NCBI RefSeq assembly: GCF_003334765.1
Contig: NZ_QOWT01000053.1
DNA from: Escherichia coli
GTDB taxonomy: Bacteria; Pseudomonadota; Gammaproteobacteria; Enterobacterales; Enterobacteriaceae
DNA: 16,776 nt
Strand: one strand, 5' to 3'
The notes below the pieces were generated by a model. The model saw only the letters and a list, made by a program, of their open reading frames with translations, was not told the origin of the DNA and did no database searches. Below are positions 4,109 through 4,822 of this stretch, piece by piece. Position numbers and translations under genes: made by a program. Every line of letters begins with the position of its first letter. Position 1 is the first letter of the stretch.

Positions 4109-4822
4109 ATGAATGTTAATTACCTGAATGATTCAGATCTGGATTTTCTTCAGCATTGTAGTGAGGAACAGTTGGCAAATTTCGCCCGATTGCTCACCCA
4201 TAATGAAAAAGGCAAAACTCGCCTCTCCAGCGTCCTGATGCGCAACGAACTGTTTAAATCGATGGAAGGGCATCCCGAGCAACATCGCCGCAACTGGCAG
4301 CTGATTGCCGGAGAATTACAGCATTTTGGTGGCGATAGTATCGCCAACAAACTGCGCGGACACGGTAAATTGTATCGGGCCATTTTGCTCGATGTTTCAA
4401 AGCGATTGAAGCTGAAAGCCGACAAAGAGATGTCTACGTTTGAAATTGAGCAACAGTTACTGGAACAATTTCTGCGTAATACCTGGAAGAAAATGGACGA
4501 GGAACATAAGCAGGAGTTTCTGCACGCGGTCGATACCAGGGTGAATGAGCTGGAAGAGCTGCTGCCGCTGCTGATGAAAGACAAATTATTGGCAAAAGGT
4601 GTGTCGCATTTGCTTTCCAGCCAACTGACCCGCATTTTACGCACCCACGCAGCAATGAGCGTACTTGAGCATGGTTTGCTGCGCGGCGCGGGGCTGGGAG
4701 GCCCTGTAGGTGCGGCACTAAATGGGGTTAAAGCGGTCAGCGGCAGCGCCTATCGCGTGACGATTCCAGCCGTACTGCAAATCGCCTGCCTGCGCCGGAT
4801 GGTTAGCGCCACTCAGGTCTGA
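4109..4822 (+). CDS. yaaW: Uncharacterised protein YaaW (UPF0174/DUF3944-type), 237 aa
   Basis: ORF 4109..4822(+), 25 nt downstream of yaaI on the same strand; no obvious RBS; sequence MNVNYLNDSDLDFLQHCSEEQLANFARLL... recognised as K-12 YaaW. Confidence 0.85.
   Translation: MNVNYLNDSDLDFLQHCSEEQLANFARLLTHNEKGKTRLSSVLMRNELFKSMEGHPEQHRRNWQLIAGELQHFGGDSIANKLRGHGKLYRAILLDVSKRLKLKADKEMSTFEIEQQLLEQFLRNTWKKMDEEHKQEFLHAVDTRVNELEELLPLLMKDKLLAKGVSHLLSSQLTRILRTHAAMSVLEHGLLRGAGLGGPVGAALNGVKAVSGSAYRVTIPAVLQIACLRRMVSATQV
4150..4644 (-). CDS. mbiA: Disputed antisense ORF fully embedded in yaaW, corresponding to the annotated htgA/mbiA locus (161-164 aa depending on start); real coding status doubtful
   Basis: ORF 4150..4644(-), alternative ATG at 4633-4635. 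Ser/Cys-rich, low-complexity translation (SSGSSSSSSF..., CLCSSS) typical of an antisense shadow frame. Position matches the K-12 b0012 annotation as I recall it. Confidence 0.25.
   Translation of the reverse strand: MRKMRVSWLESKCDTPFANNLSFISSGSSSSSSFTLVSTACRNSCLCSSSIFFQVLRRNCSSNCCSISNVDISLSAFSFNRFETSSKMARYNLPCPRSLLAILSPPKCCNSPAISCQLRRCCSGCPSIDLNSSLRIRTLERRVLPFSLWVSNRAKFANCSSLQC

Follow-up and report, generated by a model that had tools for sequence, protein, structure and literature searches.

The antisense mbiA (htgA) frame inside Escherichia coli yaaW is probably an unselected shadow open reading frame

The htgA (mbiA) open reading frame (ORF) of Escherichia coli K-12, embedded in antisense orientation in yaaW, is among the most cited bacterial examples of overprinting and is still a CDS of the K-12 reference annotation (“uncharacterized protein MbiA” in the RefSeq record of MG1655). 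The name mbiA comes from a reported biofilm effect; Fellner et al. are reported to have described a phenotype for htgA/mbiA in 2014 (FEMS Microbiol Lett 350:57) and to have renamed the gene, which later papers count as verified by phenotype. An overprinting origin of htgA was proposed by Delaye in 2008 (PMC2268670; BMC Evol Biol 8:31), in a study that summarizes the cloning, Northern blots, protein labelling and promoter mapping of the gene, gives its start codons as yaaW nucleotides 632 and 527, and mentions a nonsense mutation of htgA in one strain. According to the same study, sigma-32 does not induce htgA, the start codon of the gene had been relocated, and its existence “remains controversial”. 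Other work points in different directions: htgA was once withdrawn from annotation owing to conflicting data (PMC3454372), an intragenic promoter in htgA/yaaW was found to be active in vitro (PMC2731890), and, according to a modelling study, conservation of “-2” frames “might be solely an artefact” (PMC4182739).

The stretch of DNA analyzed here (16,776 nucleotides, hereinafter the window) represents the thr-dnaKJ region of E. coli in the orientation opposite to that in MG1655. Over positions 4000..4900, its identity to strain 300709 is 100%, and a match with at least 97% identity is present in 5,425 of the 5,426 complete E. coli genomes; the yaaW gene of the window differs from that of MG1655 in 3 nucleotides. 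An earlier note, prepared from the sequence alone, described a 164-codon antisense frame inside yaaW and assigned it to the htgA/mbiA locus. Both statements hold, the first by the ORF listing, which places the frame wholly within yaaW on the opposite strand (Table 1), and the second by the coordinates of b0012 in MG1655 and by the literature, in which this locus is already known. The ORF of the window is MG1655 mbiA with three extra N-terminal codons. Although mbiA is annotated in MG1655, the NCBI PGAP pipeline calls this ORF in none of the 21 RefSeq genomes inspected.

Table 1. Positions of yaaW, the antisense frame and its polymorphic sites in the window.
Feature	Position	Strand	Source or remark
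yaaW, host (“mother”) gene, 237 aa	4109..4822	+	b0011 in MG1655
Antisense ORF, 164 codons, GTG start at 4644, TGA stop at 4152..4150	4150..4644	-	ORF listing
mbiA (htgA, b0012), 161 aa, 486 nt, ATG at 4635	4150..4635	-	MG1655 annotation, NC_000913.3 10830..11315
Stop-to-stop open frame, 199 codons	4150..4749	-	Mapping of the frame
Historical 591-nt htgA model, CTG start at 4740		-	Coordinate mapping and Delaye 2008
Polymorphic stop at the yaaW codon 14/15 junction, CTT-CAG	4150..4152	-	TGA allele versus CTC (TGG) allele
yaaW nucleotide 90 (Thr30 ACC)	4198		ACT allele: antisense TGG to TGA, yaaW-synonymous
yaaW nucleotide 210 (Leu70 TTA)	4318		TTT allele (L70F): antisense TGT to TGA

The host protein is a full-length member of its family. 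YaaW contains a DUF3944 domain (PF13099, E-value 1.4e-14) and a ubiquinol-cytochrome-c-chaperone-like domain (Ubiq_cyt_C_chap, PF03981, 4.7e-16), as identified by a Pfam search, and matches the NCBIfam model NF007593 over residues 1-237 with a score of 515 bits (cut-off 395). PGAP names yaaW “msyB” and its product “acidic protein MsyB” in every annotated genome seen, because the equivalog model NF007593 (PRK10236) carries that name. The real MsyB (b1051, 124 aa) matches a different model, NF008544, and shows no similarity to YaaW (BLASTP E-value 2.5). It thus looks as if NF007593 is a mis-named family model from which a wrong gene name has spread to thousands of genomes.

The mbiA ORF is probably an unselected shadow ORF, that is, a by-product of yaaW and not a maintained gene, or at most a proto-gene that is dispensable. 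It shows the combination of features expected of a shadow ORF, namely an open frame accounted for by the sense gene, neutral evolution, a narrow phyletic range and no protein-level features. The first of these follows from the mechanics of the frame. Because the antisense ORF and yaaW share their third codon positions (the “-2” or 123/213 phase), an antisense stop codon can arise only where a yaaW codon of the form NNY precedes TAY (Tyr) or where one of the form NNT precedes CAN (His or Gln). Within the frame, from one bounding stop to the other, 21 Tyr, His or Gln codons are at risk in this way, and 12 of these are preceded by Glu, Gln, Lys or Trp, the codons of which cannot end in T. Hence only 9 junctions between yaaW codons 15 and 215 can be closed by synonymous choice, and none of the 9 has a stop in Escherichia. 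The frame would accordingly stay open because YaaW contains few tyrosines and because most of its histidines and glutamines follow residues encoded by codons ending in A or G.

The chance expectation was estimated with the YaaW protein held fixed and its synonymous codons re-drawn in two ways. When yaaW's own synonymous codons were permuted, the ORF reached 164 codons or more in 22% of the trials, and the frame was free of stops over 199 codons or more in 14%; with codons drawn according to the usage of 11 neighboring genes, the respective values were 13% and 9%. By contrast, whole-codon shuffling, which destroys the amino-acid order, yielded an ORF of 164 or more codons in 0.6% of the trials (0.006). 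The openness of the frame is therefore a property of the amino-acid order of YaaW rather than of its codon choice, and no excess of ORF length over chance is detected given the YaaW sequence (P = 0.13-0.22 for the ORF and 0.09-0.14 for the run of at least 199 codons).

Long antisense frames are common in this region. The window contains nine antisense ORFs of at least 164 aa, among which the mbiA ORF is the shortest. Within the wobble-on-wobble frame, yaaW has the largest open fraction among 12 genes (199 of 238 codons), and dnaK has a run of 183 codons. The most extended case is a 452-aa antisense ORF (1986..3344, plus strand) inside dnaK (1386..3302, minus strand), in the codon-complement frame, which is far longer than the mbiA ORF; in the same frame, dnaJ, talB and yaaJ contain antisense runs of 184-210 codons. 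The antisense runs of these four genes are interpreted as ordinary shadow ORFs of genes with biased codon usage.

The foremost alternative, itself unlikely, is that mbiA is a genuine, very young overprinted gene specific to Escherichia, which starts at ATG 4635; its product, about 161-171 aa in length, would be basic, rich in Ser and Cys and probably disordered, and would have a conditional, dispensable function. The annotation in MG1655 and the published reports of expression and phenotype speak for such a gene, as does the distribution of the open frame. In a scan of yaaW orthologs in which each species was represented by one genome (17 loci), the mbiA frame is open only in Escherichia (E. 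coli, the clade E1V33 and E. albertii), and it is open in every Escherichia lineage sampled, including the partial copies from E. whittamii and MOD1-EC7003, where it is open as far as it is readable. The 11 complete orthologs from outside this genus, among them representatives of Citrobacter, Salmonella enterica subsp. diarizonae, Kluyvera, Pseudescherichia vulneris and two unclassified Enterobacteriaceae, each have 3-6 stops in this frame between codons 15 and 215 of yaaW, and a partial yaaW copy from Citrobacter youngae contains 2 stops within 146 codons. This distribution agrees with the earlier report that htgA is restricted to the E. coli lineage (Delaye 2008, PMC2268670). Within Escherichia, the end of the frame shifts, from yaaW codon 15 in K-12-like strains to codon 5 in E1V33 and many E. 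coli and to codon 31 in E. albertii.

In most of the orthologs from outside Escherichia, an antisense TAA is found at yaaW codon 73. This stop requires a Tyr codon, E. coli has Phe73, and in one E. coli strain (NZ_CP151026.1) the substitution F73Y recreates the antisense TAA. Judging from these sequences, the Phe/Tyr difference at YaaW position 73 probably contributed to the opening of the frame in Escherichia.

All 22 Escherichia sequences compared have the ATG at 4635, a point in favor of a young gene; against it, this codon depends on one yaaW wobble base and on two bases that are fixed by Ile176. Upstream of this ATG there is a weak Shine-Dalgarno-like sequence, GGGTG, whose duplex energy of -3.9 kcal/mol lies at the 12th percentile among positions of the gene. 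No Shine-Dalgarno sequence precedes GTG 4644, with which the ORF of the window begins, and this GTG is replaced by GTC in Escherichia sp. E1V33 and by GTA in E. albertii.

Selection was assessed in a sample of 14 E. coli sequences, evenly spaced down the similarity ranking, together with three other Escherichia lineages, each change in the overlap being classified by its effect in both frames. Among the yaaW-synonymous events, 16 of the 78 transitions alter MbiA, with an expected fraction of 0.163, as do 10 of the 19 transversions, with an expected fraction of 0.545. The resulting omega for the MbiA frame is 1.20 (95% CI 0.73-1.91; 97 yaaW-synonymous events), an interval that rules out strong constraint but not weak constraint. 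The reciprocal control, namely YaaW changes among MbiA-synonymous events, gives an omega of 0.24 (0.09-0.53), which indicates that the method is able to detect selection. Thus, the conditional omega test reveals no purifying selection on the antisense protein in the overlap that is separable from that on YaaW. The persistence of the ORF is likewise that expected under neutrality, with 2 nonsense events observed in the MbiA frame in the Escherichia sample compared to 2.01 expected. These results count against a maintained young gene, with the reservation that a very young de novo gene could function and yet show an omega close to 1.

Synonymous sites lead to the same conclusion. The earlier note proposed to look for excess synonymous-site constraint in yaaW over 4150-4644, and none is found relative to the neighboring genes: in comparisons of the window with E1V33 or E. 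albertii, the divergence at four-fold sites is 0.336 in the overlap and 0.247 in yaaI, satP and mog pooled. The transition:transversion ratio at these sites is the same in the overlap as in the neighboring genes, so that no deficit of transversions is apparent either. Relative to the last 61 codons of yaaW, the overlap shows a lower divergence (0.336 vs 0.494, p = 0.04 uncorrected), which echoes the claim of Delaye that the overlapping part evolves more slowly and could be read in favor of a young gene. That argument was rejected here because the overlap is slower only than these unusual 61 codons and not slower than the neighboring genes; the difference is treated as regional variation and not as evidence for htgA. 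The segment in question, yaaW codons 177-237 (4637..4819), stands out on its own account, with a four-fold divergence of 0.49 (18 transitions and 21 transversions) compared to 0.25-0.34 elsewhere in the region.

The fate of the frame in natural populations was followed by counting alleles across 5,426 complete E. coli genomes, with short megablast queries that carry the variant base in a central position such that non-carriers lack a 28-base seed. Rare alleles were sought with pooled probes that consisted of 25-nt flanks joined by mismatching spacers, and the counts include only those alleles that sequences or dedicated 49-mer searches confirmed. The K-12-type stop at yaaW codons 14/15 (CTT-CAG), which yields an MbiA of 161 aa, is present in 1,501 genomes, and the read-through allele with CTC at codon 14, which adds 10 codons to the ORF, up to a TAA formed at yaaW codons 4-5, and yields an MbiA of 171 aa, in 3,881. 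Two further alleles introduce premature stops and have spread through whole lineages. The L70F allele (154 genomes, among them Nissle 1917 and an ST1193 strain) truncates MbiA to 105 aa and is most likely the nonsense allele mentioned by Delaye; the Thr30 ACT allele (248 E. coli genomes) truncates MbiA to 145 aa and is present also in E. albertii. A pooled probe for 50 other single-base MbiA nonsense changes matched 257 genomes, nearly all of which carry the Thr30 allele; in addition, stops in the MbiA frame caused by F73Y, R38H and H31Y were each confirmed in one sequenced genome. One apparent carrier from this probe (H122/L036) was discarded as a false positive, given that its sequence contains no stop. 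Altogether, the MbiA frame is truncated in at least 402 of the 5,426 genomes (7.4%).

With a matched probe for the 69 nonsense changes that are possible in the yaaW frame of this region, 11 genomes gave a match; yaaW is intact in at least 5 of them (the false positives H134-136 and H137/138). True carriers of yaaW-frame nonsense mutations are therefore limited to at most 6 genomes, versus at least 402 with stops in the MbiA frame. One verified case is a change of Q21 to a stop in MLI104K1/K2, which PGAP flags as “internal stop”. Separately, in the pig strain PS2Canimalfeces12 (NZ_CP180600.1), an IS1 element within yaaW splits the gene into a DUF3944 fragment and a chaperone-like fragment. Given the IS1 insertion and the nonsense alleles, yaaW is dispensable at least in those strains.

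For a young gene, the fact that about 92% of the E. coli genomes retain a frame of at least 161 aa is a point in favor. Against it stand the two truncating alleles carried by entire lineages, a C-terminus that differs by 10 codons between the two major alleles, and an ORF length that lies within the range of chance. Taken together, the nonsense counts, the truncating alleles and the shifting position of the stop reveal no retention of the frame beyond neutral drift.

The protein itself offers no further clues to a function. MbiA is rich in Ser, Cys, Leu and Arg, mirroring the complement of yaaW codons, and with 37 Ser (23%), 16 Cys (10%) and no His among 161 residues it fits the description in the earlier note of a low-complexity, Ser/Cys-rich translation resembling a shadow frame. 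Searches of Pfam and NCBIfam yield no match to MbiA, and a search of 5.8 billion proteins identifies three clusters of relatives only, one of which is E. coli itself; the other two (P0002 and P0003) were rejected as homologs because they look like frameshift chimeras of two antisense frames. AlphaFold, run on the single sequence, yields no confident fold (mean pLDDT 28, no secondary structure) and is otherwise uninformative. The lack of a confident fold, of a domain and of real homologs argues against a genuine gene.

It is rather unlikely, too, that mbiA is an Escherichia-specific de novo proto-gene between birth and death, with low-level translation, a conditional effect (e.g., on biofilm) and no measurable purifying selection yet, segregating as alleles of 171 or 161 and 145 or 105 aa. 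If this were the case, the Thr30 ACT allele (248 genomes) and the L70F allele (154 genomes) would be ready-made natural knock-outs for the study of de novo gene function. The former, which leaves the YaaW protein unchanged, would provide a clean natural experiment on mbiA.

A functional element of another kind, a minus-strand antisense RNA that starts within yaaW or downstream of it and modulates yaaW through transcriptional interference or RNA pairing, appears improbable. Under this scenario, the ORF would be there by coincidence, and what has been published as phenotypes of “htgA” mutants would be due to altered expression of yaaW. The intragenic promoter that is active in vitro (PMC2731890) and the Northern signals (Delaye 2008) are compatible with such an RNA, and the neutral evolution of the peptide fits a non-coding role. 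However, no Rfam family is detected at the mbiA locus, a consensus scan, which would miss sigma-32 and weak promoters, finds no sigma-70-like promoter upstream of the ORF on the minus strand, and the synonymous sites of the overlap are no more conserved than those of the neighboring genes, which argues against a sequence-constrained RNA. The best promoter-like match of the region, TTAACA-18-TATATT with 10 of 12 bases (4119..4090, minus strand), lies across the yaaW start and points toward yaaI; it cannot drive mbiA because it is located downstream of the mbiA ORF. The Rfam matches in the window are confined to two elements expected for this region, the sRNA tpke11 in the dnaK-dnaJ spacer (1298..1375, minus strand, 69.6 bits) and the threonine operon leader, Thr_leader (15155..15274, minus strand, 121 bits).

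There is very little to be said, finally, for the possibility that the ORF functions solely in its historical form, the 196-aa HtgA/HtpY, a heat-shock regulator that starts at CTG 4740 and acts positively on sigma-32 promoters: the open frame does reach 4749, but a CTG start with no match to a Shine-Dalgarno sequence (-2.4 kcal/mol) is implausible, htgA has already been taken out of annotation once, all the neutrality results apply equally, and the proposal has been largely refuted in the literature.

The interpretation of mbiA as an unselected shadow ORF can be summarized in the following scenario. The ORF would be a passive “shadow” of yaaW, read in the antisense frame in which the third codon positions coincide, and all detectable selection on this DNA would be directed at YaaW. 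The sequence of the antisense peptide, its C-terminal end and its integrity would drift at the neutral rate. With selection acting on YaaW only and MbiA drifting neutrally, any antisense transcription or translation is most likely incidental, and we infer that the published phenotypes need not stem from a functional protein. The gene call made in the 1990s would then survive as a legacy annotation. The earlier note left the choice between an overprinted gene and an annotation artefact open, in line with the debate in the literature, where Delaye already used the word “controversial”, and suggested examining whether the frame stays open across relatives, with stop codons in close relatives that have an intact yaaW counting against a gene. 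The frame is open only within Escherichia, such stops are found elsewhere, and even among complete E. coli genomes at least 7.4% have a premature stop. Together with the lack of excess synonymous constraint and of detectable purifying selection, these observations favor the artefact, or neutral by-product, side of that choice.

If the comparative evidence holds, a textbook case of overprinting turns out to be an ORF that is explained by chance and the YaaW sequence and is freely truncated in nature. Caution is then needed when ORF conservation in a wobble-on-wobble antisense frame is interpreted, and the old “htgA” phenotypes may belong to yaaW. In addition, the long shadow ORFs of dnaK, dnaJ, talB and yaaJ could serve as useful negative controls for ribosome profiling.

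Compared with the systems described previously, the ORF of the window is the same locus as htgA/htpY/mbiA (b0012) of K-12, in the same third-on-third phase that Delaye describes and with no structural difference; the chance model, the 5,426-genome census and the conditional omega test add to the work on this locus and lend no support to the inference of Delaye that yaaW is constrained by htgA. With shadow ORFs in general, including the comparable ones in the same window, mbiA shares a length set by the sense protein, a composition that reflects the complement, and neutral evolution. It differs from most of the long shadow ORFs of the window in being wobble-on-wobble, whereas those are in the codon-complement frame (antisense position 3 on sense position 1), and from ordinary shadow ORFs in having an experimental literature and a gene name. 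The overlapping genes nog1/citC, laoB, ano, asa and pop/ompA of E. coli O157:H7 resemble mbiA in being embedded antisense and taxonomically restricted, with an overprinting origin proposed, and nog1 is also in the same “-2” frame. The case for these O157:H7 genes rests on RNA-seq, ribosome profiling and competitive-growth phenotypes, whereas mbiA is judged here by comparative evidence, which is negative.
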